Source of the DNA: Clostridium sp. | Lineage (GTDB): Bacteria > Bacillota > Clostridia > Clostridiales > Clostridiaceae | Direction: 5' to 3' | DNA: 64,000 nt | NCBI RefSeq assembly: GCF_047777555.1 | Contig: NZ_JBKEEV010000007.1 | Span: forward strand, 7,877 to 71,876 | Shown here: piece by piece, positions 9,192 through 64,000 of the stretch | Layout of the letters: every line of letters starts with the position of its first letter | How positions within the stretch are numbered: position 1 is the stretch's first letter | The notes under the pieces: generated by a model | Seen by the model: only the letters and a program-made list of their open reading frames with translations | What the model was told of the DNA's origin: nothing | Databases searched by the model: none | Made by a program: the position numbers and the translations under genes

Positions 9192-10265
9192 TCAGTTTTC
9201 CTTTAATTGATCCTCAGGTTTAGGATTATAATACTTCAATGTAGACTGTATACTTTTATGTCTCATTTCTTTTTGAACATAAGAGATATCTTTATTTAAT
9301 TCATCAATCAAATACATAGCATATCCATGTCTAAATCTATGATTTAAATTATCCTCCTTACTATTCTTATCTATCGAAATACCTATCTTAATAAAAATCT
9401 CTTTGAGAAAATTATTCCATCCTGAAGGTGATAATGGACTTCCATTCTTGTTTAAAAATAGGTAGTAATTTCTTCTTGTATTTTCTCCTACACAGTCTGC
9501 CTTCGCATATTTCATGATATTTTCCAATTTTCTTTCCGTTTGATTTAGAATATCTCTAGATATTTCTTGATATTTTCTGACTTCATCCATTAATTTTATT
9601 GGCAAAGCCACAACCTGATACCCACCTTCTCTTTCACTATTATAGATTTTTGTCTTATACATTTCTGAAGAAAAAACCTTCATGCACCCTTTTGCATGTT
9701 GATATTTCTTATCACTTACTCTATTTCTCAAGTAAAGTTGACCTGCTCTCTTATCATCGGGATGAGGAATAATGTCCTCTAATGTAATTCCTAATACTTC
9801 ACCAATCCTCAATCCTCTTAAAAACATTAGATCTATAATCAATTTATTCCTTAATTTAAACTCTGATCTGACATTTTCATCAATGTATTCCAAAACTCTA
9901 GTATATTCTTTAACTGAAATATACTTAGGAACATATTGATTAAAACCCTTATGCCTTGATTTATTTGTTGTATATTTGCTTGTCACAATTACTTTATTTG
10001 CACTATAGCTAATTTTATCAGTGACAAATTGTACCTTATCAAAAAATTCATTTTTATTAAATCTAGAAAACATTATATACTTTCTGATGTCATCAAAGTA
10101 TGTATTATGAGTTGTTATTGTCCTATTAGTCTTAAATATATACCTTTCAATATTTCCTTCTATATTATGGCCTAAAATAAAATGTGATAAATTAATAATA
10201 TCTGTCTTGTCAAGTTCCTGTATTTCCCTTCCAATAATTTCACTAAAAGAATATAATAACTTCAA
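9192..10265 (-). CDS. Tyrosine recombinase (TnpA-like); the true N-terminus probably extends upstream
   Basis: Motifs: LRGLRIGEVLGI (Arg I), HRFRHGYAMY (HxxR) and MRHKSIQSTLKYY (His/Tyr). The same frame stays open upstream to ~10517 and encodes a core-binding-like segment (FLLNSKGEVIEEVFNYLNYY...REQAASALKLLYSF) with no ATG, GTG or TTG. Confidence 0.8.
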   Translation of the reverse strand: MKLLYSFSEIIGREIQELDKTDIINLSHFILGHNIEGNIERYIFKTNRTITTHNTYFDDIRKYIMFSRFNKNEFFDKVQFVTDKISYSANKVIVTSKYTTNKSRHKGFNQYVPKYISVKEYTRVLEYIDENVRSEFKLRNKLIIDLMFLRGLRIGEVLGITLEDIIPHPDDKRAGQLYLRNRVSDKKYQHAKGCMKVFSSEMYKTKIYNSEREGGYQVVALPIKLMDEVRKYQEISRDILNQTERKLENIMKYAKADCVGENTRRNYYLFLNKNGSPLSPSGWNNFLKEIFIKIGISIDKNSKEDNLNHRFRHGYAMYLIDELNKDISYVQKEMRHKSIQSTLKYYNPKPEDQLKEN

Positions 10266-10438
10266 TGCACTTGCTGCTTGTTCTCTACCTGAAAGAACTA
10301 CGCTTGCACAATAATAATTTAAGTAATTAAATACTTCTTCGATTACTTCTCCTTTTGAATTAAGTAGAAATACATAATGGAAATTCTCATACTTCTTACT
10401 AACTCTTACAATGCTTACTTTTCTTACAAGTTCATCAT

Positions 10439-10498
10439 CTATATTAAATTTAATAATATGAATGCAATGCAGGAAATACCAAAATTTTTCAATTTCAT
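10439..10498 (-). pseudogene. 19-codon 5' remnant of a methyl-accepting chemotaxis protein paralog
   Basis: MKLKNFGISCIAFILLNLI* aligns with [21 protein letters not shown] of the intact MCP (16981-18879). The flanking DNA aligns too: the same RBS region and the same glpK terminator. Confidence 0.75.
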
Positions 10499-10520
10499 GG
10501 TAATTTGTCCCCTTTATTTA

Positions 10521-10563
10521 ATAATACAAGATGAACTTCTATAGCAATTCATAGAAGTTCATC
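10521..10563 (-). terminator. Intrinsic terminator of glpK copy 1
   Basis: Perfect 13-bp stem gatgaacttctat / atagaagttcatc, followed by a T-rich tract on the minus strand. The same hairpin recurs after glpK copy 2. Confidence 0.75.
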
Positions 10564-10587
10564 CATAGTATAATATAGTTTAATCAG

Positions 10588-12090
<1,503 letters not shown>

Positions 12091-12168
12091 CTAAGTTAAA
12101 CCTTAAAATTAAATTATTATATTCATAAAATCATTTAAAACTTAACTTATATAATATTTAAAAATTAA

Positions 12169-12873
12169 TTAAAATACACCTACAAATAAGAATGCCCCAA
12201 TTAATCCACCTATTATTGGTCCTATTACTGGTATCCATGCATATCCCCAGTCTGAATCTCCTTTTCCTGCTATTGGAAGTATTGCGTGAGCTATACGTGG
12301 TCCTAAGTCTCTTGCTGGGTTTATAGCATATCCTGTAGGTCCACCTAATGCAAGACCGATAATTAATATTACTAATCCTACTGCTAATGTTCCAAGTCCA
12401 TCTGTCATCTTAACTTGGCCAAGTCCTAAAATACTAAATACTAATACGAAAGTTCCCACAATTTCTGTAATAAGATTTGCTGCTGAATTTCTAATAGCTG
12501 GTGCTGTTGCAAATACTCCAAGCTTTGCTGCCTTGTCTTCTGTAGCTTCCCAGTGTGGCAAATATGCGATCCATACTAATGCTGCTCCAACAATAGCACC
12601 TAACATTTGAGCTACTATATATCCTGGAACTAGTGCCCAATCAAAGTTTCCAATTGCAGCTAATGCTATTGTAAGTGCTGGATTAAAGTGTGCTCCACTT
12701 GCTGCTCCAAAAATCCATGCTGGAACTGCTACTGCACATGCCCATGCTACAGTTATTACTATCCATCCTGCATTCTGCGCTTTACTCTTGTTAAGAGTTG
12801 TGGCTGCACACACTCCATCTCCTAGTAGAATTAACATCATTGTGCCTAAGAATTCTGCTAAATAACTTGACAT
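12169..12873 (-). CDS. glpF: Glycerol uptake facilitator, MIP family (copy 1)
   Basis: 234 aa with two NPA boxes (HFNPALT, INPARD) and hydrophobic repeats. Confidence 0.95.
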   Translation of the reverse strand: MSSYLAEFLGTMMLILLGDGVCAATTLNKSKAQNAGWIVITVAWACAVAVPAWIFGAASGAHFNPALTIALAAIGNFDWALVPGYIVAQMLGAIVGAALVWIAYLPHWEATEDKAAKLGVFATAPAIRNSAANLITEIVGTFVLVFSILGLGQVKMTDGLGTLAVGLVILIIGLALGGPTGYAINPARDLGPRIAHAILPIAGKGDSDWGYAWIPVIGPIIGGLIGAFLFVGVF

Positions 12874-12943
12874 AATAATTCCCCCTTAATTTAAAAAATT
12901 TATATATCATTTCACATTTATATAAATATGAAATGAACATAAC

Positions 12944-13026
12944 GAAATCGTTTACGCAGGTTAAAAAGAGCATTATCAAGAAAGAGTTTATTTCTCTCTC
13001 CTAATAATGGCTCTCATCTCTCCGCC
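12944..13026 (-). promoter_or_regulatory. glpF1 leader: terminator hairpin plus conserved 5' motif (GlpP-type antitermination target) and a cre-like site
   Basis: Stem agagcattat 12967-12976 with ataatggctct 13004-13014, followed by a U-run on the minus strand. Motif ggctctcatctctccgcc lies at 13009-13026. gaaatcgtttac at ~12945-12956 resembles cre. Confidence 0.5.
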
Positions 13027-13030
13027 AAGA

Positions 13031-13411
13031 TTATTCATCTTTATCTACGCACTTTACACTCTTTGTTGCTATAACATCTACACCAGTTCCTACTACATTT
13101 TGTATAATTACATCTCCTATATTTATAGGTGCCTTTACCTTTATCCCTTTAAGAGCTTTCATACATTCATATATCTTCTCTTTAGGGATATCCTTCTTCG
13201 TTTTTACTGAAACTACACCTAATTCTCCGTTCTCTATTTCAACAGTTGAAGTAACTATTCTCGTAGGATTAGTACATTCTTTCTCAGCATAAGCAACACC
13301 CTTAACACAGCTATTGCCTTTAACCTCTATAACCTTTTTATCTTCTAGTGTAACTTCTAAAGCACACCCCATAGGGCATCCTATGCATGTAAGTTCTATA
13401 TTTTCCCTCAT
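13031..13411 (-). CDS. DUF1667 domain protein (copy 1)
   Basis: 126 aa with the CIGCPMGC motif. Third gene of the dehydrogenase triad. Confidence 0.8.
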   Translation of the reverse strand: MRENIELTCIGCPMGCALEVTLEDKKVIEVKGNSCVKGVAYAEKECTNPTRIVTSTVEIENGELGVVSVKTKKDIPKEKIYECMKALKGIKVKAPINIGDVIIQNVVGTGVDVIATKSVKCVDKDE

Positions 13412-13415
13412 AATA

Positions 13416-14675
13416 CTACACTCCTTCCACCTTTACTATGATTTTCTTACAGTCAGGATAATTTTCAAACATACTCTTTGTAAGCTTTAAGGTTTGCATT
13501 TCTCCAGGAGTTAGTATTTTCTTATTTATATGCATAGTTCTTTCCCCATCAAAATAAAGAGAAATATATTTGTCTTTATATACGTTATTTACTCTGAATC
13601 TTAGGTCAACAAACTTATCCACATTGTTTATATTAATATATTTTGGAACTGTATAAGTTATTCCATCTAGTGGTAAAACTTCTATTCCTTTTTCATCGAA
13701 AGATTTTCCTTTCACATATCTTGCTGCATTTTTACCAGCATTTATACTTTCCTCAGTAACATTGTCTACTAAATCATGAACGTGAAGCACATTTCCACAA
13801 GCAAAAATTCCATCTATATTTGTCTGGAGACTTTCATTAACTTCTGGTCCTCCTGTAACGCTGGACATTTCAACCTGCGCCTTCCTTGAAAGCTCATTTT
13901 CTGGAATTAAGCCTACTGATAGCAATAGAGTATCACAAGGAATATATTCTTCTGTCCCTTTTATAGGCTTTCTATTTTCATCAACCTTTGCAATAGTAAC
14001 CCCTTCAACTCTATTCTTTCCTTTTATTGATACAACTGTATGAGATAATTTTAAAGGAATATTATAATCATCTAGACATTGAACTATATTTCTCTTAAGT
14101 CCACTAGAATAAGGCATAAGTTCTACAACAGCCTTAACCTTTGCTCCCTCTAAAGTCATTCTTCTTGCCATTATAAGTCCTATATCACCAGAGCCTAAAA
14201 CAACTACTTCTTTTCCTGGCATATATCCATCTATATTTACAAATTTCTGAGCTGTTCCTGCACAATATATACCAGCACATCTATCCCCTGGAATACCTAT
14301 AGCTCCTCTTGGCCTTTCACGACATCCCATAGCTAAGATTATAGCCTTAGCCTTAATTTCTAAAATTCCGTCCTCTTCATTTACTGCTGTTATAACTTTG
14401 TCTTTATTAATATCTATTACCATAGTATTCAATTTATGCTCTATTTTTAAATCCCTTATCTTATCTATAAATCTTGCAGCATACTCTGGTCCTGTTAGCT
14501 CTTCTTTAAAAATATGAAGACCAAAGCCGTTATGAATACACTGATTTAAGATTCCTCCTAGTTTATTATCTCTTTCTAATATTAGTATATTGTCTATGCC
14601 TTCTTCTTTAGCTCCTACAGCTGCTGCAAGCCCTGCAGGTCCAGCGCCTATTATTACCACATCATATTCTTTCAT
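13416..14675 (-). CDS. FAD/NAD(P)-dependent pyridine nucleotide-disulfide oxidoreductase (copy 1)
   Basis: Two dinucleotide-binding motifs (VVIIGAGPAGLAAA, VVVLGSGDIGLIMA). ATG at 14675 is preferred because it follows a GGAGGA RBS. Confidence 0.85.
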   Translation of the reverse strand: MKEYDVVIIGAGPAGLAAAVGAKEEGIDNILILERDNKLGGILNQCIHNGFGLHIFKEELTGPEYAARFIDKIRDLKIEHKLNTMVIDINKDKVITAVNEEDGILEIKAKAIILAMGCRERPRGAIGIPGDRCAGIYCAGTAQKFVNIDGYMPGKEVVVLGSGDIGLIMARRMTLEGAKVKAVVELMPYSSGLKRNIVQCLDDYNIPLKLSHTVVSIKGKNRVEGVTIAKVDENRKPIKGTEEYIPCDTLLLSVGLIPENELSRKAQVEMSSVTGGPEVNESLQTNIDGIFACGNVLHVHDLVDNVTEESINAGKNAARYVKGKSFDEKGIEVLPLDGITYTVPKYININNVDKFVDLRFRVNNVYKDKYISLYFDGERTMHINKKILTPGEMQTLKLTKSMFENYPDCKKIIVKVEGV

Positions 14676-14704
14676 TTTTCTATCCTCCAAAAAATTAATA
14701 TGGT

Positions 14705-16138
14705 TTATATTTCTTTGTTTTTACCTACAAGAAGGTTAGACTTTCCTCCAAATAAGGTTACATCCTCTGGACTTAGGTTTAGTTCCTCTGCCAAAATATG
14801 AAGCACCTTATTTGAGCAGAATCCACTTTGACATCTTCCCATACCAGCCCTTGTTCTTCTCTTAACTGCATCTATGTTTCTTGCACCAAGAGGTCTTCTT
14901 ATAGCCTCTACTATTTCTGCTTCTGTAACTGTTTCACATCTGCACACTACTCTTCCATACCTTGGATTTTTCTTTATTGCTTCTATTCTTTCTTCTTCAG
15001 TCATATCCCTAAACTTTGGTATTCCTTTTCTTATTGGATTAAACTTTTCATTTTTGCTTGGATGTAACTTTTCAACAACAATGCCTGCTATCATCTCTGC
15101 AATGGCAGGTGAACTTGAGAGCCCTGGCGATTCAATTCCTGCTGCATTTATAAATCCTTCTACATCCTCTGCTTCTCCTATTATAAAGTCTCCAGTATTT
15201 CCCCTTGCTCTATTTCCTGCAAAAGACTTTATAAGGTATTTCATAGGGATATTTTTAAAGGTTATTTTAGCCTTATCTATAACGTCATCCAATCCTTCTC
15301 TTGTATTTGATAAATCTCTTTTATCTTCAATATCATCTGCATTTGGTCCTATTAACAAGTTTCCATCTACTGTTGGGGTTACTAATATTCCTTTTCCAAG
15401 CTTGGTTGGTAATTGGAACAATGTCATCTTTGCCATATTGCCAACCACTTTATCAAATAAGCAGTATTCCCCTCTTCTTGGCATTATCTTTATCTTATTT
15501 TTACTTACCATATTATTTATATCATCTGAGAACAATCCTGCTGCGTTTATTACAAGCTTACTCTCTATTTCTTCTTTAGAAGTTTTGATTACAAACTTAT
15601 CCTCTATCTTATTTATTCCTATAACTTCTGTGTCAAGTTTAAATTCCACTCCATTTGTAGCTGCGTTTTCTGCAAGAGCAATGGTCATCTCATATGGACA
15701 CACAATTCCTCCTGTAGGTGCATATAATGCAGCATATACATTATCATTTATGTTTGGTTCTAATTCTAATATTTTTTCTTTGTATATTATTTGAAGATCT
15801 GGAACTCCATTTTTTTCTCCTCTTTCTTTTAGCTCTAATAAATTAGGCATTTCCTCTTCATTAAAGCATAAAACTAAAGACCCATTTCTCTTAAATGGAA
15901 AGTCAAGTTCCTCTACCAATTTGTCAAACATAGCGTTGCCTTTCGCATTCAATATTCCCTTTAGAGTACCAGGTTTAGCATCATAACCAGCATGAACTAT
16001 GGCACTATTGGCTTTTGTGGTTCCAACAGCCACATCTGACCCCTTTTCCACTACACAAACTTTTAAATTATATTTAGCAAGTTCTCTAGCAGTAGAGCAG
16101 CCTACAACTCCTGCTCCAATTATAGTTACATCAAACAT
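14705..16138 (-). CDS. FAD-dependent glycerol-3-phosphate dehydrogenase/oxidase-like protein with a BFD-like [2Fe-2S] domain (copy 1)
   Basis: 477 aa. N-terminal FAD-binding motif (VTIIGAGVVG) and C-terminal CRCETVTEAE...GRCQSGFC. Confidence 0.85.
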   Translation of the reverse strand: MFDVTIIGAGVVGCSTARELAKYNLKVCVVEKGSDVAVGTTKANSAIVHAGYDAKPGTLKGILNAKGNAMFDKLVEELDFPFKRNGSLVLCFNEEEMPNLLELKERGEKNGVPDLQIIYKEKILELEPNINDNVYAALYAPTGGIVCPYEMTIALAENAATNGVEFKLDTEVIGINKIEDKFVIKTSKEEIESKLVINAAGLFSDDINNMVSKNKIKIMPRRGEYCLFDKVVGNMAKMTLFQLPTKLGKGILVTPTVDGNLLIGPNADDIEDKRDLSNTREGLDDVIDKAKITFKNIPMKYLIKSFAGNRARGNTGDFIIGEAEDVEGFINAAGIESPGLSSSPAIAEMIAGIVVEKLHPSKNEKFNPIRKGIPKFRDMTEEERIEAIKKNPRYGRVVCRCETVTEAEIVEAIRRPLGARNIDAVKRRTRAGMGRCQSGFCSNKVLHILAEELNLSPEDVTLFGGKSNLLVGKNKEI

Positions 16139-53475: not shown

Positions 53476-54108
53476 CTATTTCATATTTTCATTTTCCAAA
53501 TATTTTTTTATCCTGTGAGATAAATTATCGTCTCCTACAACTAAAATTTTATCGCCTCTTTTAAATTCTAAATATGGACCTGGAGACACTAATATCTTAT
53601 CTTCTCTCTTTACTCCAACTATAGTTCCTCCTGTATTGTGCCAGAATTCACTCTCTCCTATAGTCTTTCCTATTATATGAGATTCCTCAGGGATTTCAAT
53701 TTCTATAGGTTCCACAAAATCTGTATTTCTAAATCTATATGAGTAATCTATAATTTTTTCATTTACATCCTGTATCTGTTTTTCTATCCTTTTTCTATCT
53801 TCGAGAAGCTTTTTCATTGTGCTTTTCAGCATTCCTATGCTTTCTTTTTCTTTGAAACTTTCAACAAACTGATAAGCTTTTTCAGAAGATTTTATTATTA
53901 TTCCACTTCCCTTATTTACTTCCACAACTCCCTTATCTTCTAAAAGCTTCATAGACTTCCTTATAGTCTCTGGGGAAACATTATATTCTCCTGCAAGAAC
54001 TGAACGTCCTCTCAGCTTTTCTCCTTCTACTAGTTCTCCTTTATAAATTCTAGCTGCCACATCTACTGATATTTTAATATATCTGGGCATTTCAATACGC
54101 TCACCCAT
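53476..54108 (-). CDS. GntR-family regulator with a C-terminal TrkA-C (RCK_C) domain
   Basis: wHTH segment LAGEYNVSPETIRKSMKLLEDKGVV. The C-terminus resembles TrkA-C (IGKTIGES...GDKILVVGD). ATG at 54108 follows a GGAGGG RBS. Confidence 0.75.
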   Translation of the reverse strand: MGERIEMPRYIKISVDVAARIYKGELVEGEKLRGRSVLAGEYNVSPETIRKSMKLLEDKGVVEVNKGSGIIIKSSEKAYQFVESFKEKESIGMLKSTMKKLLEDRKRIEKQIQDVNEKIIDYSYRFRNTDFVEPIEIEIPEESHIIGKTIGESEFWHNTGGTIVGVKREDKILVSPGPYLEFKRGDKILVVGDDNLSHRIKKYLENENMK

Positions 54109-54186
54109 GCTGTAACCCTCCAAAACTCTATTATAATCCTATTTGCAAGTTAGATTATAGCACAAACTTATTACATGGGGAAATAA

Positions 54187-55143
54187 TTATACAATCATTT
54201 TTTCACTCCACTTACCGCATCTATCTCCAAAGCATCCAACTACTTCTGTAGAGTTTTTTATATTTACAACTTCACACCTATTTGGACAGCCACTGCATTC
54301 AAAACTATTAGATACAAACCTTGCATCTCCAACTTCCAGCCCTTTAAAATTAGTAATTTTCTTCTTCTGAACCGATTCTGCACCTATAATTGCAGCACCT
54401 ATTGCTCCCATAACATCATGGTGCTCTGGTACATAAACTTTAAATCCTAAAGCATCTTCAAAAGCCTTTTTTATACCTTTATTTGCAGCAACTCCACCTT
54501 GAAAAAATACCTTTTGCTGAATATCTTTTCCCTTGGCCACATTGTTAAGATAATTTCTTACCATAGCTTCGCAAAGTCCTCTTATTATATCTGCTTCATT
54601 ATATCCCAGTTGCTGCTTATGTATCATGTCAGATTCTGCAAACACAGCACATCTACCTGCTATTCTAACAGGAACATTAGACATTAGAGCATAGTCACCA
54701 AACTTTTCTATTGGTATTTCTAATCTTTCCGCCTGCCTATCTAAAAAGGAGCCTGTTCCTGCTGCACACACCGTATTCATAGCAAAATCCGTGACAACTC
54801 CTCCTTTTAGAGTAATTATCTTTGAATCTTGCCCTCCTATTTCTATAATAGTACGAACCTCTTTATCCAAATGAAGAGCAGCAATAGCATGAGTAGTAAT
54901 CTCATTTTTTACAGCATCTCCTCCAATAAGGGCAGCTGCTATATGTCTTCCGCTTCCTGTTGTACCAACAGAAACAATTTCGTCACTGCTATACTTCTCT
55001 TGCAGCATTTTTAATCCCTTTTGTACTGCTTGTATTGGCCTTCCCTTTGTTCTCAAATATATCTTTTCTACCACATTCATGTCCTTATCTAAAAGTACAA
55101 AATCCGTGCTAACGGAACCTACATCAACACCCATATGATACAT
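54187..55143 (-). CDS. BadF/BadG/BcrA/BcrD-type ATPase (2-hydroxyacyl-CoA dehydratase activase-like)
   Basis: MGVDVGSVSTD and EIGGQDSK motifs, with a C-terminal Cys cluster (CSGCPNRC...GCFGDRCGKW). ATG at 55143 follows a GAGGAGG RBS. Confidence 0.8.
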   Translation of the reverse strand: MYHMGVDVGSVSTDFVLLDKDMNVVEKIYLRTKGRPIQAVQKGLKMLQEKYSSDEIVSVGTTGSGRHIAAALIGGDAVKNEITTHAIAALHLDKEVRTIIEIGGQDSKIITLKGGVVTDFAMNTVCAAGTGSFLDRQAERLEIPIEKFGDYALMSNVPVRIAGRCAVFAESDMIHKQQLGYNEADIIRGLCEAMVRNYLNNVAKGKDIQQKVFFQGGVAANKGIKKAFEDALGFKVYVPEHHDVMGAIGAAIIGAESVQKKKITNFKGLEVGDARFVSNSFECSGCPNRCEVVNIKNSTEVVGCFGDRCGKWSEKMIV

Positions 55144-56221
55144 TTTTATGCCTCCTCTCAATTAAATCTAAAAATGCTTCAATTCTAGTAACATATCCTC
55201 CCTCTCCAGTCATTTCATCAACTACTAAACTCATTATAGGAAAATCCTTATCTCTTGATATTGATGGAAGTATAGCTTTAGTTATAATCTCCGGCATACA
55301 TCCCATAGGGAATATTTGAATAGCTCCATCAAACTTATCTTTTTGAGCCATCATAGCCTCTCCTATACATTCTCTTGCATGCCCACCTATGTAATATGGT
55401 AAATACTCTTTTGATGCTCTCCTAAGATCAAGAGAGTTCAATTTCAATATTTTCAAAGCTGCATCCTTAACCCACCAGCTAGGAGTAAGCTTTCTTTTGC
55501 TGCACACACCATAATCCATAAGTTTATCTTCTATATTAAGGTTAGGAAATGGATCTATAACTGTATATATTTCTCCAATTATAGCCACCTTAAGAGGGTT
55601 CTTATTTTTATCAATAGGAATATTTTCTATGGCATTCTTATAGCTTTCTAAGATTTTTATTGCTTCGCTTGGATCATTAGTCTTAACTACATCTCTCTTA
55701 CATTGATTTAGAATTCTTTTACAATCTCCTTTATTCACTTCATATCCCGCTAAATAGTGAGCCTTTTCTTCAATTTTATCTATTAAATTTATTGCCTTTA
55801 ATGCCCTTAAAGCTGCTATAATCTTCTCTCTATTGCTCTTAGGACTTTCTGACACTAAATATTCTATTCTTTTTAATAGCTCCTTTTTTCCTATATCCTT
55901 AGGATAATCCATGACTATAAACTTCAAATTATATCCCAAATTTTCTAAAGCTTTCATTTGAAGTTCACAATATTCCCCAAACCTACAAGGTCCACAGCTT
56001 CCTACTAAAAGTATAGTATCAGCTCCCTGCTCAACGCTCTGAATATAATTCCCCATCATTATTTTGTAAGGAAGACACATCTCTTCTGGAGCGTAGGTTA
56101 CCCCAATCTCAAGAGCTGTTTTATTGTTTATTGGTGGAATAACATAGTCTATTCCTAAACCATCAAAGAGTACCTTAACTGCAATATATACGTTCCCCAT
56201 ATGTGGAAATGTTACCTTCAA
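55124..56221 (-). CDS. DUF2229 (activase-associated) protein B
   Basis: 365 aa, paralogous in style to the upstream gene. The start is uncertain: TTG at 56221 or a later ATG. Confidence 0.65.
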   Translation of the reverse strand: MKVTFPHMGNVYIAVKVLFDGLGIDYVIPPINNKTALEIGVTYAPEEMCLPYKIMMGNYIQSVEQGADTILLVGSCGPCRFGEYCELQMKALENLGYNLKFIVMDYPKDIGKKELLKRIEYLVSESPKSNREKIIAALRALKAINLIDKIEEKAHYLAGYEVNKGDCKRILNQCKRDVVKTNDPSEAIKILESYKNAIENIPIDKNKNPLKVAIIGEIYTVIDPFPNLNIEDKLMDYGVCSKRKLTPSWWVKDAALKILKLNSLDLRRASKEYLPYYIGGHARECIGEAMMAQKDKFDGAIQIFPMGCMPEIITKAILPSISRDKDFPIMSLVVDEMTGEGGYVTRIEAFLDLIERRHKNVSYGC

Positions 56222-57113
56222 CCATCTTCCCCCTTTCTATCATATCTATAAACGCCTCTATTCTTGTATTAAATCCAGCCTCCCCTGTCTGCTCATCTAC
56301 CTTTAAAACAAGAAAAGGAAAATCCCCAATTCTATTCTTTATAAGCTCTATTACTACGGAATCTATACCACAGGCAAAAGAAGATATGTATATAATCCCA
56401 TCTACTTTCTTCTTTGAAAAAAGAGTTGCTGCAGCTCCATATGAATTTCTAGCAAAACTCCAGAAAGGCCTTTTAAAAAGCTTATTTACTTCCCTATCTA
56501 TTTCTACTTCTGAAACAAATTCTTCTGTAATAACTCCAGCTCCAAATTTATGAAGCTTTTCTATTAAGTTCATATTTATAAAATTATCATATACATTATA
56601 TGGATGCCCAAGCAATGCCAATTTTATATCATAACCATCTTCATTTAACCCTTGCTTAAAATTTCCTTGTACCGCTAAGGCTTTTATATATGCTGTATCT
56701 ACTGCATATATATTTCTACATATCATAAGACCTAATTTTTTGCACCAACTATGAAGACTTTTTTCTGAATTTATATACAATGGTAACTCTGTAATATCAG
56801 GCATATCTGGAATGCTGTTTTTTATCATCTCAGGAAGTCCACAGAACTTTGGACATATATATTCCCTATCTCTAATGCACATGATTCTAGGTACGATTAT
56901 CAAATCGCATTTATCTTTTATATTATCCACATGACCGTGAAAAATTTTCATTGGAAGACATACTTCATCTACAGCGTATTTTACCCCTTTATCTAATATC
57001 CTTTTATTTGTGTCTTCAGAAACAATAATCTCTGCTCCTATTTCCTCTAAAAATGTATGAATAAAAGGATAATACTTGTAGTACAGTAATCCTTTTGGAA
57101 TCCCTACTTTCAT
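56175..57113 (-). CDS. DUF2229 (activase-associated) protein A
   Basis: 312 aa. The CLPMK...ICPKFCGLPE pattern is typical of this family as I recall it. Confidence 0.65.
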   Translation of the reverse strand: MKVGIPKGLLYYKYYPFIHTFLEEIGAEIIVSEDTNKRILDKGVKYAVDEVCLPMKIFHGHVDNIKDKCDLIIVPRIMCIRDREYICPKFCGLPEMIKNSIPDMPDITELPLYINSEKSLHSWCKKLGLMICRNIYAVDTAYIKALAVQGNFKQGLNEDGYDIKLALLGHPYNVYDNFINMNLIEKLHKFGAGVITEEFVSEVEIDREVNKLFKRPFWSFARNSYGAAATLFSKKKVDGIIYISSFACGIDSVVIELIKNRIGDFPFLVLKVDEQTGEAGFNTRIEAFIDMIERGKMVEGNISTYGERIYCS

Positions 57114-58834: not shown

Positions 58835-59055
58835 AAAAAGACCTACTTCTGCCCCAAAAAGGGGCGGAAAGTAGGTCCGCGGTACCACCCAAATTTATCA
58901 CTCATTTCACATAACGGCACAAGCCGGCTCAGCTTACTAAAACTTCAGCCTACGGCTCAAGGATGATTTTCAGCAACCTTAGTATGTGGGTTCTCACCTA
59001 TCTCCACTCTCTGTAAGACATATCTTTGCTTACTCTTTCCTATCATCGCTTTGAA
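58835..59055 (-). promoter_or_regulatory. T-box leader riboswitch, probable AUC (Ile) specifier
   Basis: On the minus strand: a stem I with GA/K-turn (GCGAUGAU...UGAGC), an AGAGAG box, a GGUGAGA distal loop, and a specifier loop GAAAAUCA before helix UCCU. The T-box motif AAAUUUGGGUGGUACCGCGG is at plus 58877-58896. A terminator follows (gacctacttctgcccc / ggggcggaaagtaggtc, 58840-58877) with a U-run. Confidence 0.85.
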
Positions 59056-59142: not shown

Positions 59143-59760
59143 CTAAACTATGTTTTTAAGTTCTTTCCACTTCCTTCGGTATCCCTCTTCTATAACCTTC
59201 CTTTTCACTTCCTTTTCAGATATATTATCGTAATCATCATTATCTAGCACTTCTTGAAGAGTTAAATAAATTATATCTTCCTTTAAATTCGGTTCATAGG
59301 TTACAAAGATTTCTTCTTCTATCCTCTCTTGTGTCTTTGATTTACTCTCATCAATTATATGCTCTACCTTAACTCCATTACTCTTTAAAGCATATCCTAA
59401 AAGAATGCTTCTATGACAGTTAAATGGATTTCTCTCTGAACACATAAGCACAATATTATGTCCTCGCCTAATTCCTTCTACTATTTTACGTATACCTTTC
59501 TTAAACATATCTTCCTTTATTATATTATCGAAATTTGACCTTTTCCTTCTATTACCTAATTCTTCTCCCATATACATATAGTTAATACCTGATTGCTTTA
59601 TAGCTTTTTCTAATATCTCTCTATCAAAAGCTCTTGTATAATTATTATTACTGTAAGGATTACTTCTAACATCCATTACACAATCAATTCCATAACTTCT
59701 TATTATTTCTATAAAATCTTCTAACTTTCTTGTTGAATGTCCAATAGTATAGCATGTCAT
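59143..59760 (-). CDS. DUF488 family protein
   Basis: MTCYTIGHSTRKLEDFIEIIRSYGIDCVMDVRSNPYS is the DUF488 N-terminal signature. ATG at 59760 follows a GGGGGA RBS, 30 nt after the helicase stop. Confidence 0.75.
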   Translation of the reverse strand: MTCYTIGHSTRKLEDFIEIIRSYGIDCVMDVRSNPYSNNNYTRAFDREILEKAIKQSGINYMYMGEELGNRRKRSNFDNIIKEDMFKKGIRKIVEGIRRGHNIVLMCSERNPFNCHRSILLGYALKSNGVKVEHIIDESKSKTQERIEEEIFVTYEPNLKEDIIYLTLQEVLDNDDYDNISEKEVKRKVIEEGYRRKWKELKNIV

Positions 59761-59789
59761 TTGTATATCCCCCATTTATGAACATATTT

Positions 59790-62700
59790 TTACGCAATTC
59801 TGTATACGTTATTCTTTATTAGCTTATTCTCTTTTTGATTAAACTTTATACAGTATTTTAATAGTTTTGCTCTTACACAATCCTGCTTTAAATCCTCCAG
59901 ATCTACAGAATGGAATAGCCACATTTGCTTTCTTGCTCTGCTTGCTGCTAAACTAAACCTTCTTACATCCCCTTCCTTAGTTAAAGCTGCAAATTTAACA
60001 TTGTTAGCAATAACCATAGATAAAAAAATTACATCTCTTTCATCTCCTTGAAATAAATAAGGACTGCCGCAAATAATTTTTCTACTTATAATTTCCTTTT
60101 CACTGATTCTCTGCTCTATTAATTTCCTTATTACCTCACTTTGAGCATCTCCTAAAAGAGAAATTACTCCCATAGTCATTCCATCATATTTTGGATTTTT
60201 ACAGCATTCTTCTATTTTATCTACCAGGCTTTCAGCCTCTTTTATATTTATATTTTTTATCTTATCCCTTTCCCCTTCAACCTTTACTGTCTTAACTGCA
60301 CCTCCTAGAAATTCATTTTTAAAGAAGTTTATTGGGGATAAGATTTGATCTGAGTAATACACCTTATTACTAAATCCTATTATCTCTGGTAAAGATCTAA
60401 AATTTTCTCTTAATACAACTCTTGATGGGAACACTCTAAATGCTGTACTGTGAATGCTTGTCCATATATCAAACCACTCTGAATGAGGTATTCCATGCAA
60501 ATATTTATCTATAAGCTGCTGAACTTCTTTTCTGATATTTTCTGAGGTTTCACGATTGATTTGTCTATTATCTCCAACTATTACTGCCTTTTTGGCTCTA
60601 ATCAATGCTGATATAGCAAAAATATTGCTTTCATTGCCATCTTCTATTATTACTACATCAAATGGTTCTTGGGATAGATCGAAATTTTCTATAACCTTAT
60701 TAATAGGCATAATCCATACAGACATGAAATTTTTAAAATTGTCTATTTCCTTTTTAGCTAGCTTTATATAATTACTTTTAGCTTTTCCAGAAGAAGTCTC
60801 AATCCTTCTTACAGCTTCTTTCCAAGCATACAAACTTCTTTTTTCGCTTTCTCCTATTTTACTTAAGGTATTAAACCATGCTTTTTTCTCTACTAAACCT
60901 TTTACTAAACAAGCTTCTTTCTTCTTTTCTAAGTTTATATTCTTTTTAATATTTTCAACTTGGAACTTTTTAAGTTCCTCTTCTAAAAGATTGGAAAGCT
61001 GCCTCCAGGACCAAGCTATGCTGAAATTTTTATATTTTGTGAGCATATTTAATCTATCTTCTTCATTCAATAGTCTTTGTACTAATTTTGGGCATCTTTT
61101 ATTTACTTTCTCTAATAAATACTCTAGCTCTCTAATGTTTGGCGCTATTTCCTTAAGCCTATGAATTTTCTTATAGGATTGTCTTAATAACAAAGTATCC
61201 ATATTGCGAAGAGCCTTTACTATTTCTTCAAAGCCTTTTACATTTGAAATAAGTTTTTCAATATTTCCTATATAGCTCTTTAAATTCTCATATTCGCTTA
61301 TATACCTTATACTTAAAACCCCATATTGTAACTTGAAGTAAGTATCTATGTTATACCAATCCACTTCATCCAAAAATACAATTTTGCCCATTAAATTCAC
61401 TATTTTTTCTTTAATCTTCTTATCCCAATTTATAATCACATCTATTTTATTTATATCATCTTCTAAGTTTGTTAAAACATTCAAATTTATATCCTCTATT
61501 TGTTCAGCTCCATACTCAGACATTGAATTATTCCATAGATTTTTCATGCTCTCTTCAACAGAACGCTGCTCTATATATAATTTAGCTATCTTAGCCTGCT
61601 CCTTAGACTCTATTTTCTTTCCGTCCACTCGGCACTTGTTCAAAATATCTTGACATTGACTGTGGAAAAGCTTAAATAACTTTCCTACTCTACCTTTTTG
61701 TTCATATTGATTATATATAACATTAAATTCATCAACTAATACATTAACATCCATATCTTTAGGAATTTCAACACTATGACCACTTATTTCTTTTGCAATA
61801 CTTCCTATTTTCTTTATATAATAATTAGTTTTTAATATTGTTTGCTGAAGAACCGTCTTAACTGTTTCACCTTTTTTTGTACATTCTAAAATATTTTGAA
61901 TCCAACTGTCTTTTATATCTTCTAAAAATCTCTGTGTACTTTCTAACAACCTAATAATGTAATCATAATCGTAGTCAGAATTATAAGATATACACCAGTT
62001 TTTTACAGCTTTCTTATAACCTATATAATTTCTTCGTATATCCATTATTCTTTGAATTTTAGCAACTAATTCATCGCAAGGAGGTATATTATAAAGAATA
62101 GGTCCCATCTCATTAAATTGATATATCTCTTCTTTGCTTATAGTGCTTATAAGATAAACTAATCTGGAAAACTTAGCATCTGTTAAAAGTGGTTTTTCAT
62201 TATAATTTATATTATCTTCTATCCAGGAGTATTGACTTTCATTTTCTTCAAGCCAAACCTTTACACCTAATAATTTATACTTCTTGCCGCAATATTGTAT
62301 CTCTTTATCCCAAATAGCCATTGCTTGTTCTAAATCCTGATTTAACAACTGATGTTTGCTTTTACATTCCATTAAACTTCTTACAGTGTTTTTTATATCC
62401 TTATCTAAGTTTTCTAAATCAGTATCTAATCTTTCTGTTACCTTATCTATTGAAGTATCAAGATCCTTTATACAATCTGTATCACCTTGAATTACACTTG
62501 CACATAAAGGTCTTATTTCTTTTGGTATTCTGTCAAGCAATATTCTAAGAGGCTTAGCTCTTTCACTTGTGACCAAAATCCTTTTATTATGAGCTAGCAG
62601 ATGACAAATTAAATTTATTATAGAATGTGTTTTTCCCGTTCCTGTGGGCCCTTCTACTACAACTCCAAAGCCTTCTGCTAATTTTCTTGCAATTTCTTTT

Positions 62701-62954
62701 TGTTCATCATTATGTTCAAGAGGATATAATATGTTCTGCGCTGTATTTTCCCATTCTTCTACATTCGTCATATCTTTATCTACATAACTCTCGTCAACTA
62801 AAGCTTGTATTGATGAAGGAATATACCCTCCTGTACTCATTTTATTTGAAATTCTTTTAAGCTCTTGGCTCCAAATTTTTTCATTTTTTTGAGTAAGTTT
62901 TCGTACACTCGTAAGATAGGAAACTAGCTTAAGTAGCTTTTCTTCAGTATCCAT
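59790..62954 (-). CDS. Large SF1 (Upf1/DNA2-like, AAA_11/AAA_12-type) helicase
   Basis: Motifs: Walker A VVVEGPTGTGKTH, VVIIEDGNES, VGDNRQ, LRENFRSLPEI, FQGDERDVIFLSMV and AASRARKQMWLF. About 550 aa of coiled-coil-like insertion lies between motifs I and II. ATG at 62954 follows a GGGAGG RBS. Confidence 0.8.
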   Translation of the reverse strand: MDTEEKLLKLVSYLTSVRKLTQKNEKIWSQELKRISNKMSTGGYIPSSIQALVDESYVDKDMTNVEEWENTAQNILYPLEHNDEQKEIARKLAEGFGVVVEGPTGTGKTHSIINLICHLLAHNKRILVTSERAKPLRILLDRIPKEIRPLCASVIQGDTDCIKDLDTSIDKVTERLDTDLENLDKDIKNTVRSLMECKSKHQLLNQDLEQAMAIWDKEIQYCGKKYKLLGVKVWLEENESQYSWIEDNINYNEKPLLTDAKFSRLVYLISTISKEEIYQFNEMGPILYNIPPCDELVAKIQRIMDIRRNYIGYKKAVKNWCISYNSDYDYDYIIRLLESTQRFLEDIKDSWIQNILECTKKGETVKTVLQQTILKTNYYIKKIGSIAKEISGHSVEIPKDMDVNVLVDEFNVIYNQYEQKGRVGKLFKLFHSQCQDILNKCRVDGKKIESKEQAKIAKLYIEQRSVEESMKNLWNNSMSEYGAEQIEDINLNVLTNLEDDINKIDVIINWDKKIKEKIVNLMGKIVFLDEVDWYNIDTYFKLQYGVLSIRYISEYENLKSYIGNIEKLISNVKGFEEIVKALRNMDTLLLRQSYKKIHRLKEIAPNIRELEYLLEKVNKRCPKLVQRLLNEEDRLNMLTKYKNFSIAWSWRQLSNLLEEELKKFQVENIKKNINLEKKKEACLVKGLVEKKAWFNTLSKIGESEKRSLYAWKEAVRRIETSSGKAKSNYIKLAKKEIDNFKNFMSVWIMPINKVIENFDLSQEPFDVVIIEDGNESNIFAISALIRAKKAVIVGDNRQINRETSENIRKEVQQLIDKYLHGIPHSEWFDIWTSIHSTAFRVFPSRVVLRENFRSLPEIIGFSNKVYYSDQILSPINFFKNEFLGGAVKTVKVEGERDKIKNINIKEAESLVDKIEECCKNPKYDGMTMGVISLLGDAQSEVIRKLIEQRISEKEIISRKIICGSPYLFQGDERDVIFLSMVIANNVKFAALTKEGDVRRFSLAASRARKQMWLFHSVDLEDLKQDCVRAKLLKYCIKFNQKENKLIKNNVYRIA

Positions 62955-63025
62955 AGGCACACCTCCCTACGTTAGCAGTTTACATTTGATTTTATTTTTT
63001 ACATTTTTTACCTTAAACACCTATG

Positions 63026-63034
63026 ATTATACCA
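63026..63034 (-). promoter_or_regulatory. Possible extended -10 promoter of the helicase-DUF488 unit
   Basis: TGgTATAAT on the minus strand. The -35 is weak. Confidence 0.35.
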
Positions 63035-63062
63035 TATAATTCCATAAATGGGTAGAAAAAAA

Positions 63063-63086
63063 ATGTATGCCTTTTCGACATACATT
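63063..63086 (-). terminator. Terminator of the LacI-family gene
   Basis: atgtatg / catacat stem flanked by A and T runs. Confidence 0.6.
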
Positions 63087-63091
63087 TTTAT

Positions 63092-64000
63092 CTACTTACA
63101 AGAATCTCTTTCAACTAATTTATATGGTAAAATAAATAATTTTTTATCAATAGGTTGATTATTTATTTTCTTTATGAGCATTCTAGTAGCTACAGAGCCC
63201 ATATCATATAGTGGTTGAGCTATTGTTGTAAGCCTTGGATAGAAAAATTCTGCACCATAAGTATCATTAAATCCAATAACATCAACATCTTCTGGAACCT
63301 TTATGCCATTATCTCTTAGGGAATTTATTGCTCCCATGGCAAGGTCATCATTTGCACAAAATAGCGCATCTATATCCTTAGTCTTACTTAATATAGAATT
63401 CATTGCCTTATATCCATCTTCCGCTTTTAATGAATACTTGCAAAAGTATACTATATCTTCATTATAAGAAATATTATTTTTCTCAAGAGCATCTTTATAT
63501 CCATAATATCTTATAGCACTAGCATTTACAGCATCCACATCTGTTCCTATATATGCTATCTTTTTATTTCCCTTTTCAATCAAATAATTTACTGCATCTA
63601 TGGCAGCCTGTTTATTATCTATTATTACACTTGGATATTCAGTCTCTCTTCCATTAGTTTCAATCAATACTATTGGCATATTACTGTCTTTTATAGTCTT
63701 CATTACTGTAGATTCTAAAGAGTTACTTATATATATAACTCCATCTACCATCTTTTCTCCTAGAACCCTAAAATACTCCAACTCCTTTTCAGGATCTAAA
63801 TCTGTATTGCAAAGTATTATATTATATTCATAAATATTGGATACATCCTCTGCTCCTCTAACTATCTCAGGATACATAGAATTTGAAATATCCGGTATTA
63901 TTATACCTATTGTTTTGGTTTTCTGCGTTTTTAAACTTCTTGCCACTATATTTGGTCTATAGTCTAACTTTTTTATAGCTTCTAAAACTTTTTTCTTAGT
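63092..64000 (-). CDS. LacI-family transcriptional regulator; the 5' end (HTH) lies beyond the window
   Basis: Periplasmic-binding-like core (IGIIIPDISN..., FCANDDLAMG). The frame stays open to position 64000 (..TKKKVLEAIKKLDYRPNIVARSLK). Confidence 0.85.
   Translation of the reverse strand, partial: TKKKVLEAIKKLDYRPNIVARSLKTQKTKTIGIIIPDISNSMYPEIVRGAEDVSNIYEYNIILCNTDLDPEKELEYFRVLGEKMVDGVIYISNSLESTVMKTIKDSNMPIVLIETNGRETEYPSVIIDNKQAAIDAVNYLIEKGNKKIAYIGTDVDAVNASAIRYYGYKDALEKNNISYNEDIVYFCKYSLKAEDGYKAMNSILSKTKDIDALFCANDDLAMGAINSLRDNGIKVPEDVDVIGFNDTYGAEFFYPRLTTIAQPLYDMGSVATRMLIKKINNQPIDKKLFILPYKLVERDSCK

Follow-up and report, generated by a model that had tools for sequence, protein, structure and literature searches.

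A conserved operon joins a helicase-derived protein to a DUF488 protein beside a ccpA-like gene in Clostridium

In a 64,000-nucleotide (nt) window of Clostridium sp. (NZ_JBKEEV010000007.1, positions 7,877-71,876), two genes read on the minus strand form a single operon that joins a helicase-derived protein to a protein of the DUF488 family. The helicase-derived gene (59790..62954, minus) encodes 1054 amino acids (aa) from an ATG seven bases behind the ribosome-binding site (RBS) GGGAGG (62962-62967); the mechanical start of the open reading frame (ORF) is a GTG two codons upstream of the ATG chosen here. The DUF488 gene (59143..59760, minus) encodes 205 aa and starts at the ATG that is conserved across relatives (M-x-CYTIGHS). 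It lies in the only DUF488 ORF of the window (59143-59775), and its product matches Pfam DUF488 (PF04343) with 67.8 bits against a cut-off of 22.2. A first-pass annotation of the same DNA had described a DUF488 partner about 30 nt downstream with its own RBS, and this is borne out by a gap of 29 nt and the RBS GGGGGA at 59768-59773. No terminator-like hairpin was found in the gap or between the DUF488 gene and the next promoter. The short gap, the lack of a terminator, the RBS of the second gene, and a shared invariant promoter and leader box that is confined to DUF488-linked loci identify the two genes as one operon.

The promoter-like element named in the same annotation corresponds to the extended -10 element TGGTATAAT of the operon (63026..63034, minus), which is invariant in 9/9 aligned loci. 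It has no acceptable -35 element, which explains why a consensus promoter scan does not list it. Between the -10 element and the RBS lies a 17-nt leader box, AAGGTAAAAAATGTAAA (62998..63014, minus), with two GTAAAA half-sites 9 nt apart (AAGGTAAAAnATGTAAA). The box is invariant in the nine-locus alignment, and the whole spacer between the upstream ccpA-like gene and the helicase gene is almost so. One exact copy is found in the window and the box recurs in 11 DUF488-linked loci (L081-L088, L090-L091, L093), and it is absent from the other 126 loci compared, including ccpA-helicase loci without DUF488. The box is probably an operator or leader element, and together with the conserved promoter it points to specific, conserved control of the operon. 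Inspection of the promoter by eye gave no convincing match to a cre (CcpA-binding) site. Upstream of the promoter, the ccpA terminator (63055..63085, minus) is a hairpin (63063-63085), with 9 bp in the stem and GAAAA in the loop, and a run of eight T behind it (63055-63062). Its stem changes in a compensatory manner between species (TGTATG/CATACA vs TACATG/CATGTA), with the loop and closing bases GTCGAAAAG fixed in the same nine loci. This fixed stretch contains TGTCGAA, the Spo0A '0A box' consensus, which may be a coincidence or a regulatory site.

The larger protein has the class and about the size first described (about 1050 aa, SF1 Upf1/DNA2-like). It carries Pfam AAA_12 (54 bits) and AAA_11 (29.6 bits), its family profile matches Sen1, DNA2, IGHMBP2 and Upf1 in the PDB, and a Foldseek search with the AlphaFold 2 (AF2) model returned SETX, Sen1, Upf1, DNA2 and ZNFX1 (E 7.6e-10 to 1e-6) with about 350-390 columns superposed. 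By these domains and the two RecA folds of the model, the protein is of the superfamily 1B (SF1B) Upf1/DNA2-like type. Inside RecA1, between motifs Ia and II, the secondary structure of the AF2 model shows helices only over about 580 aa (residues ~158-740; 60735..62483, minus), and this insertion agrees with the coiled-coil-like one of about 550 aa noted earlier. It is modelled as long helices in a structure of mean predicted local distance difference test (pLDDT) score 81, and its only Foldseek matches are low-probability ones to the arms of SMC, MukB and Rad50.

The claim that motifs I-VI are all readable stands in part. Motif I (Walker A, GPTGTGKT, residues 102-109; 62628..62651, minus) is intact, with G102, G105, T106, G107 and K108 in invariant columns. 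Motif II (Walker B, VVIIEDGNES, residues 767-776; 60627..60656, minus), placed from alignment columns, reads IIEDGNES in the window vs IxDESSQS in relatives (D771E, E772D, Q775E), and motif III reads GDNRQINR vs GDDKQISP. The canonical SF1B motif set is thus kept at Walker A and departed from at Walker B (ED), at Q775 (E) and in motif III. The Walker B pair is encoded by GAA GAT both in the window and in the independent assembly L081, which excludes a sequencing error; in the more distant relative L082 the codons are GAT GAG.

The TIGHS, DVR and CHR motifs of the DUF488 family are present in the smaller protein, and T5, G7, S9, D30, R32, C115, R117 and H134, invariant in an alignment of 49 sequences, are all kept. 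The AF2 model (pLDDT 89.9) has a Rossmann-like alpha/beta core (residues 1-143) followed by a C-terminal helical hairpin (144-204), and the invariant residues sit at the C-terminal strand ends. The codons of C115-H116-R117 (59410..59418, minus) form the invariant motif core, which lies at the N-terminus of helix 116-127 and supplies a candidate catalytic Cys and Arg. A sequence search of the PDB matched no chain that would provide a solved DUF488 structure. A structure prediction had been suggested earlier as a check for an active site; it yielded the Rossmann-like core and the conserved Cys and Arg, together with fold matches that are weak (E >= 0.0085).

The two genes are linked well beyond the window. 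DUF488 lies directly 3' of the helicase gene, at 27-86 nt, in every contig-placed relative of 46-95% helicase identity, which makes ten lineages. Linked pairs were found in a metagenomic near-twin of the window (L081), a relative of 74% identity (L082), C. botulinum (L083/L084), C. aestuarii (L085), C. ganghwense (L086), metagenomic contigs of 46% identity (L087/L088), Clostridium sp. MB40-C1 (L090/L091) and further metagenomic contigs reached from the DUF488 side (L158-L161). Their common synteny is ileS-(DUF4363-DUF421)-ccpA-helicase-DUF488-(Fer4/EamA/cstA)-DUF2229-DUF2229-BcrAD-GntR-opuA, and it is shared by L093, a locus in which the helicase is reduced to its insertion. Among 80 more distant helicase loci (<=41% identity, many phyla), none has DUF488 within 10 kb, as searched with a hidden Markov model that found the window gene at 4.5e-88 as control. 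Nor does any other gene recur as a neighbour in these 80 loci, which fits single-gene systems in variable contexts. From the other side, none of 20 viral DUF488 loci has the helicase beside DUF488, and 4 of them have DuOB-like ORFs instead. The linkage that the first-pass annotation had wished to see across genomes is therefore present in all placed relatives of 46-95% identity and absent from these distant helicase and viral DUF488 loci.

Relatives of 38-42% identity also lie 3' of ileS-ccpA without DUF488 (C. aciditolerans, C. liquoris, C. estertheticum and several metagenomic contigs). The small ORFs 3' of the helicase in this clade were considered as divergent DUF488 genes and rejected, since they encode a lipoprotein, a membrane protein and a nucleotidyl-transferase-like protein. 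No helicase was found within 9 kb at the ileS-ccpA loci L095, L096, L106, L109, L111, L112 and L120. In a neighbour-joining tree the DUF488-linked helicases are monophyletic. This monophyly, the shared synteny and the presence of DUF488-free helicase-nucleases at the same ccpA site show that the association arose once, in one Clostridium clade, inside a helicase lineage already resident beside ccpA. The linkage by the same comparison is conserved and vertically inherited, and not independently recurrent. In C. aciditolerans (L001) a full-length helicase-nuclease orthologue (9395-13477) lies 3' of ccpA with a 201-aa UptA/DedA-like gene between, and is directly followed by a 729-aa DNA methyltransferase (13636-15825; DUF1156, HmaB, PglX-like) in a restriction-modification-like layout. 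The methyltransferase there occupies the place held by DUF488 in the clade of the window.

The two genes also evolve at similar rates. Relative to the window, the identities of helicase, DUF488 and CcpA are 95, 90 and 95% in L081, 74, 75 and 90% in L082, 55, 58 and 81% in L083, 52, 52 and 77% in L085, 54, 53 and 81% in L086 and 46, 47 and 73% in L087, and those of the downstream DUF2229 gene over L081-L086 are 94, 83, 68, 72 and 75%. On these alignments helicase and DUF488 keep pace with each other in their divergence, at about double the rate of the flanking genes. The ratio of nonsynonymous to synonymous substitution rates (dN/dS) of the helicase comes to 0.14 in the comparison with L081 and to 0.135 with L082. 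DUF488 gives 0.12 and 0.10 in the same comparisons, and the flanking genes 0.06-0.10. Each sub-region of the helicase, both RecA halves included, has a value of 0.09-0.29. Purifying selection over every helicase region and over DUF488 rules out that the window pair is a decaying pseudogene pair. In two tracts, at about 61750-63000 and at 54000-54750, the window has zero differences to L081, which is 94% identical and differs elsewhere by about 6% (15-25 mismatches per 250 nt). These tracts look like recent recombination tracts, and one of them spans the promoter and roughly the first 400 helicase codons.

It could be argued that helicase and DUF488 are mere neighbours with unrelated functions on a shared transcript, the more so as their association arose once and neither family shows the pairing elsewhere. 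The adjacency of 27-86 nt has nevertheless been kept through saturation of synonymous sites, the evolutionary rates are matched, a conserved promoter and leader serve both genes, and DUF488 has been kept in L093, the one reduced form of which the locus was read. We regard a chance neighbourhood as extremely improbable.

The ancestry of the helicase can be traced through its homologues, of which 296 were found and 120 are listed. Most of the listed proteins are 1330-1700 aa long. They extend beyond the window protein by about 195 residues or more at the N-terminus, and at the C-terminus they carry a Vsr-like nuclease of the REase_MTES_1575/DUF559 type. The absence of a fused nuclease, stated at the outset, holds for the window protein, which has no Pfam match to a nuclease domain. 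Since most relatives carry one, this absence, like that of the N-terminal domain of about 195 aa, is by comparison with them a secondary loss and not an original trait. The protein matches the PADLOC profile PDC-S37 (E 6.8e-25, 85 bits, profile positions 297-1223 of 1550, with the C-terminal part absent; relatives reach 167-203 bits) and the NCBIfam model ProA (NF058533; 129 bits, 1.1e-37, model positions 630-1572 of 1903). Both of these alignments extend over the whole window protein, as they do in its longer relatives. The match to Hhe (NF042953; 56.2 bits) covers residues 767-1025 only, that is RecA2. With Mokosh, MkoA gives 56 bits over RecA2 of the window protein and MkoC 78-120 bits in longer relatives.

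Such scores support homology and, for ProA, Hhe and Mokosh, exclude membership. At 129 bits against a curated cut-off of 1500 the window protein is not a ProA, and its full-length relatives, at 193-230 bits, are below that cut-off as well. Hhe, with a cut-off of 2000 bits, is ruled out by the score and by the lack of both DUF4011 and an MTES_1575 match. Mokosh is ruled out because the MkoA match is partial, neither protein has a PLD domain and no PLD gene occurs between ccpA and the T-box leader. The distance to the curated cut-offs places the window protein outside Hhe and ProA, and it is homologous to the defence-type helicase-nucleases (PDC-S37, ProA, Hhe relatives). Its first description as a defence-class helicase accordingly holds for its homology to PDC-S37 and ProA and, more weakly, to Hhe and MkoA, and not for membership of Hhe or ProA.

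The likeness to these systems and the departures from them can be stated module by module. With ProA and PDC-S37, which are large single-gene SF1B helicase-nucleases, the window protein shares the helicase class and the long insertion between motifs Ia and II. Full-length Clostridium orthologues align with them also through the C-terminal nuclease, which the window protein cannot do as its nuclease is gone. The N-terminal ~600 residues of the ProA model have no counterpart in it, and its Walker B departs from the canonical form. These single-gene systems have no DUF488 partner, whereas the window helicase has one. Hhe, composed of a DUF4011 helicase and a Vsr-type endonuclease, has the SF1B core in common with the window protein and the REase_MTES_1575/DUF559 nuclease in common with its relatives, whereas the window protein itself aligns over RecA2 only and has neither DUF4011 nor the nuclease. 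The Upf1-like core is shared with Mokosh, in which the MkoA helicase is accompanied by the PLD nuclease MkoB in type I and both are fused as MkoC in type II; here there is no PLD and the partner is DUF488.

The DUF488-linked clade itself displays a stepwise reduction of the helicase. It contains full-length helicases of 1348-1365 aa with canonical motifs, and forms without the N-terminal domain (1160-1170 aa) that arose more than once. The nuclease was lost in one subclade (C. botulinum, C. novyi; 1241-1246 aa), in which motif II has drifted (DDASD, DNAND, DEGSE) and motif III has lost its Q. The window group is nested in this nuclease-less subclade, with the N-terminal domain gone too and Walker B changed to ED in the window itself. 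Reduction has gone furthest in L093, where a 484-aa ORF (10132-11586) corresponds to window residues ~208-673, that is the helical insertion only, and is followed by an intact DUF488 gene (11615-12247). The protein P0184 is 89% identical to this ORF. Another insertion-only protein, P0185 (483 aa), is 45% identical to it and nearer to the window helicase; it begins with the window-type N-terminus for its first ~15 residues and then passes directly to the insertion. A tree built on the insertion domain puts P0185 inside the nuclease-less clade in 91/100 bootstraps and joins L093 and P0184 to the full-length P0007, and a single origin of the short forms is obtained in 0/100 bootstraps. As the short forms are never monophyletic, reduction to the helical domain has, on this tree, taken place twice independently. 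The insertion is the sole part kept by the two reduced lineages, and DUF488 is kept wherever this can be checked.

The same series can be read as the decay of a relic. The helicase would then be a remnant that supplies only a promoter and a translation context to DUF488, which would work alone, as stand-alone DUF488 proteins such as YeaO appear to do. The progressive loss of the nuclease, of the N-terminal domain, of motifs II and III and finally of the whole ATPase is in line with such decay, as are the Walker B ED of the window and the existence of solitary DUF488 genes such as P0160 in L089, a 37%-identity relative. What makes a relic decidedly improbable in our judgement is that the helicase is held at a dN/dS of 0.14 overall and 0.09-0.29 per sub-region, with no frameshift or stop in about ten lineages, and that its rate matches that of DUF488. 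Moreover, the insertion persists as an intact ORF of about 484 aa in two independent reductions that have diverged to 45% identity.

DUF488 is a large, widespread family that includes E. coli YeaO, and we know of no activity for any of its members. Burroughs and Aravind reportedly grouped it in 2023 with RapZ-C and DUF4326 as members of the rhodanese-phosphatase superfamily, and are said to have predicted phosphate or sugar chemistry on nucleotides and the processing of DNA ends in conflict systems. In another paper of the same group DUF4326 is assigned to this superfamily and proposed to process terminal phosphates on ribose (PMC9503650). The fold matches of the window DUF488 are dominated by Cys-phosphatases (PTP/DSP), a DUF442 phosphatase, PTS IIB and diphthine-type methylases. 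These weak top matches are members of the rhodanese-phosphatase superfamily, and a conserved Cys and Arg lie at a strand-loop-helix junction. The loop from the strand-end Cys107 to Arg117 is, however, longer than the CX5R P-loop, and no structural match is significant (E >= 0.0085). Searches of the literature found no functional study on DUF488, ProA, the PDC names or DuOB, and no mention of PDC-M45; according to a preprint nothing has been published on yeaO, and DUF488 occurs near prophages and defence islands.

The window DUF488 matches the PADLOC profile PDC-M45B (9.6e-42, 141 bits, model positions 4-165 of 204), for which true members score 162-270 bits. Traced through these true members, PDC-M45 is composed of DuOB (PF22557), a DUF488 protein of about 205 aa and a DUF488-N3a-like protein of about 145 aa, and PDC-M45A was identified as DuOB, with 294 bits, via the L092 locus (2167-3494). 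The window protein is of the PDC-M45B type, C-terminal helical extension included, and may be likened to PDC-M45 and PDC-M19A. Membership of PDC-M45 is ruled out, as neither a DuOB gene (PDC-M45A) nor a second short DUF488 gene (PDC-M45C) is present at the locus. In PDC-M45 the DUF488 protein is coupled to its usual partner outside the clade of the window, DuOB, the 'Dual OB-containing domain' of Pfam, whose OB folds suggest binding of single-stranded nucleic acid; in the window a helicase derivative takes the place held there by DuOB. Complete PDC-M45 triads were also seen on viral or proviral contigs of IMG/VR (L140-L143), and DuOB-DUF488 fusions exist (P0175; cf. PDC-M19A). That DUF488 is found without a helicase, as had been remarked from the beginning, is confirmed by the solitary P0160, by these triads and by the fusion.

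The surroundings of the pair are metabolic, and the two neighbours named by the first-pass annotation, a LacI regulator and a T-box-cstA unit, were both recovered. The former is the 3' part (302 codons) of a ccpA-like gene of the LacI family (63092..64000, minus), of which the 5' end lies beyond the window; it is outside the operon and is its conserved upstream neighbour, directly 5' of the helicase in every related DUF488-linked locus. Among 19 LacI-family models, TIGR01481 ccpA fits the full-length L081 orthologue best, with 358 bits at a cut-off of 442 bits. Downstream of DUF488 a perfect TTGACA-17-TATAAT promoter of the sigma-70 type (59102-59074, minus) precedes a full-length T-box leader (58857-59055, minus; Rfam RF00230, 119 bits) and cstA. 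Since the stretch from DUF488 to this promoter has no terminator, read-through from the helicase operon is possible. Further on, three overlapping genes (54187-57113, minus) encode two DUF2229 proteins and a BcrAD/BadFG-type ATPase, resembling a 2-hydroxyacyl-CoA-dehydratase activator; the unit travels with the locus in all related genomes, is unrelated to the pair and served as a rate control. The two genes of the pair have a GC content of 0.28-0.30, vs 0.33-0.37 for the flanks. The locus is not a defence island, as the flanks are ileS, ccpA, cstA, DUF2229/BcrAD and opuA and their synteny is identical in every DUF488-linked lineage. A fixed chromosomal context had been named in the first-pass annotation as speaking against a role in defence, and with ileS-ccpA-helicase-DUF488 at the same site in every lineage examined such a context is what we find.

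A housekeeping function has to be considered on these grounds. The helicase would be a resident of Clostridium that serves repair or quality control with DUF488, which would process ends of the cell's own DNA or RNA, and the pair would have no role against phages or plasmids. The ileS-ccpA synteny is fixed over deep divergence (CcpA to 64% and helicase to 38% identity), the metabolic surroundings and purifying selection are as expected for such a function, and the conserved promoter and leader suggest regulated expression. There is also a precedent, as a large helicase annotated with DUF4011 is a core gene flanking the defence hotspot cDHS1 in Pseudomonas aeruginosa (PMC10250203). That gene resembles the window helicase in its fixed, core chromosomal site, and DUF4011 also names Hhe; it belongs to a different phylum, no DUF488 partner is reported for it, and it is likened here by annotation and behaviour. 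Against housekeeping, many of the ileS-ccpA loci in other Clostridium relatives carry no helicase, and the pair has about twice the divergence rate of the core genes on either side and a lower GC content. The closest named homologues are all defence proteins, an essential repair enzyme would not usually lose its catalytic modules time and again, and a restriction-modification-like methyltransferase follows the orthologue of C. aciditolerans. We consider a pure housekeeping role somewhat unlikely.

The points for defence, as opposed to a domesticated housekeeping task, are the defence homologues, the fast divergence, the lower GC content, the patchy presence and the C. aciditolerans methyltransferase. 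A defence role is plausible. Of the defence pair originally proposed, the conserved, co-diverging operon and the match of its DUF488 to the candidate PDC-M45B stand, and the fixed metabolic context and the single origin of the linkage tell against it.

Our preferred interpretation, held tentatively and rated a little short of evenly balanced, is that the pair is a co-evolving operon derived from an ancestor of the ProA/PDC-S37/Hhe kind, in which a helicase-derived scaffold or sensor and a DUF488 catalyst take part in nucleic-acid surveillance. The comparisons show how it arose. An ancestor of part of Clostridium sensu stricto carried a helicase-nuclease 3' of ileS-ccpA, and in one sub-lineage a DUF488 gene was gained immediately behind it, accompanied by a new promoter and leader. 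The helicase then eroded, with the nuclease lost once, the N-terminal domain several times and motifs II and III degenerating in the nuclease-less branch, until on two independent occasions all but the helical insertion was lost. The window carries an intermediate form, without nuclease and N-terminal domain, with Walker A intact and with Walker B changed from DE to ED. Its helicase-derived protein may serve chiefly as a scaffold or sensor, with nucleic acid and ATP bound through the RecA core and above all through the ~580-aa helical domain, and may position or regulate DUF488. The latter would be the only remaining candidate catalyst, a putative cysteine-dependent enzyme of a rhodanese/phosphatase-type fold that would act on nucleotides or on the phosphate or sugar groups of DNA or RNA termini. 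The role of the pair would be the surveillance of foreign or aberrant nucleic acid, and it may still be directed at phages or plasmids or may have become domesticated.

It is tempting to go one step further and regard the helical domain of about 480-580 aa plus DUF488, without a helicase, as the lasting unit. The domain would sense a nucleic-acid or phage cue and control a cysteine-dependent, end-processing DUF488 that has replaced the Vsr-type nuclease as effector. This bolder version we think quite unlikely to hold as it stands.

Several observations weigh against a surveillance pair of scaffold and catalyst. The basis for a defence role is purely computational, and PDC-S37 and PDC-M45, to which the two proteins are likened, are themselves unvalidated candidate systems. 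The fold matches of DUF488 are weak (best E 0.0085-0.015, up to 0.05; TM 0.3-0.48). The RecA regions of the window protein are still under purifying selection, so the motor may still work despite the ED, which weakens the idea of a mere scaffold for the window. Inheritance of the pair is vertical, its site is fixed and its neighbours are metabolic genes, and no mobile element or further defence gene was found near it among the loci compared. For the second of the two extreme reductions, contigs of the same source and the same length (7419 bp) are what suggest that the gene of P0185 lies beside that of the DUF488 protein P0136.

The pairing of a helicase-derived protein with DUF488 is new here; the kinds known before are the helicase-nuclease defence proteins and the DUF488 candidate systems. 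It shows that a helicase-nuclease of the defence type can settle at a fixed chromosomal site and be passed on vertically, and it calls for caution in equating homology to a defence protein with a function in defence. DUF488 is found behind five forms of the helicase, namely the full form, the form without the N-terminal domain, the form without the nuclease, the form of the window with neither of these and an altered ATPase site, and, twice, the bare helical domain. This reductive series points to the module on which DUF488 depends, and we consider it the most informative part of the analysis, as the function of DUF488 can be approached directly through it. If the reading of a unit of helical domain and DUF488 is true, it would be the first functional handle on the widespread DUF488 family (YeaO, PDC-M45, PDC-M19), and the natural deletion series would show which modules are needed.

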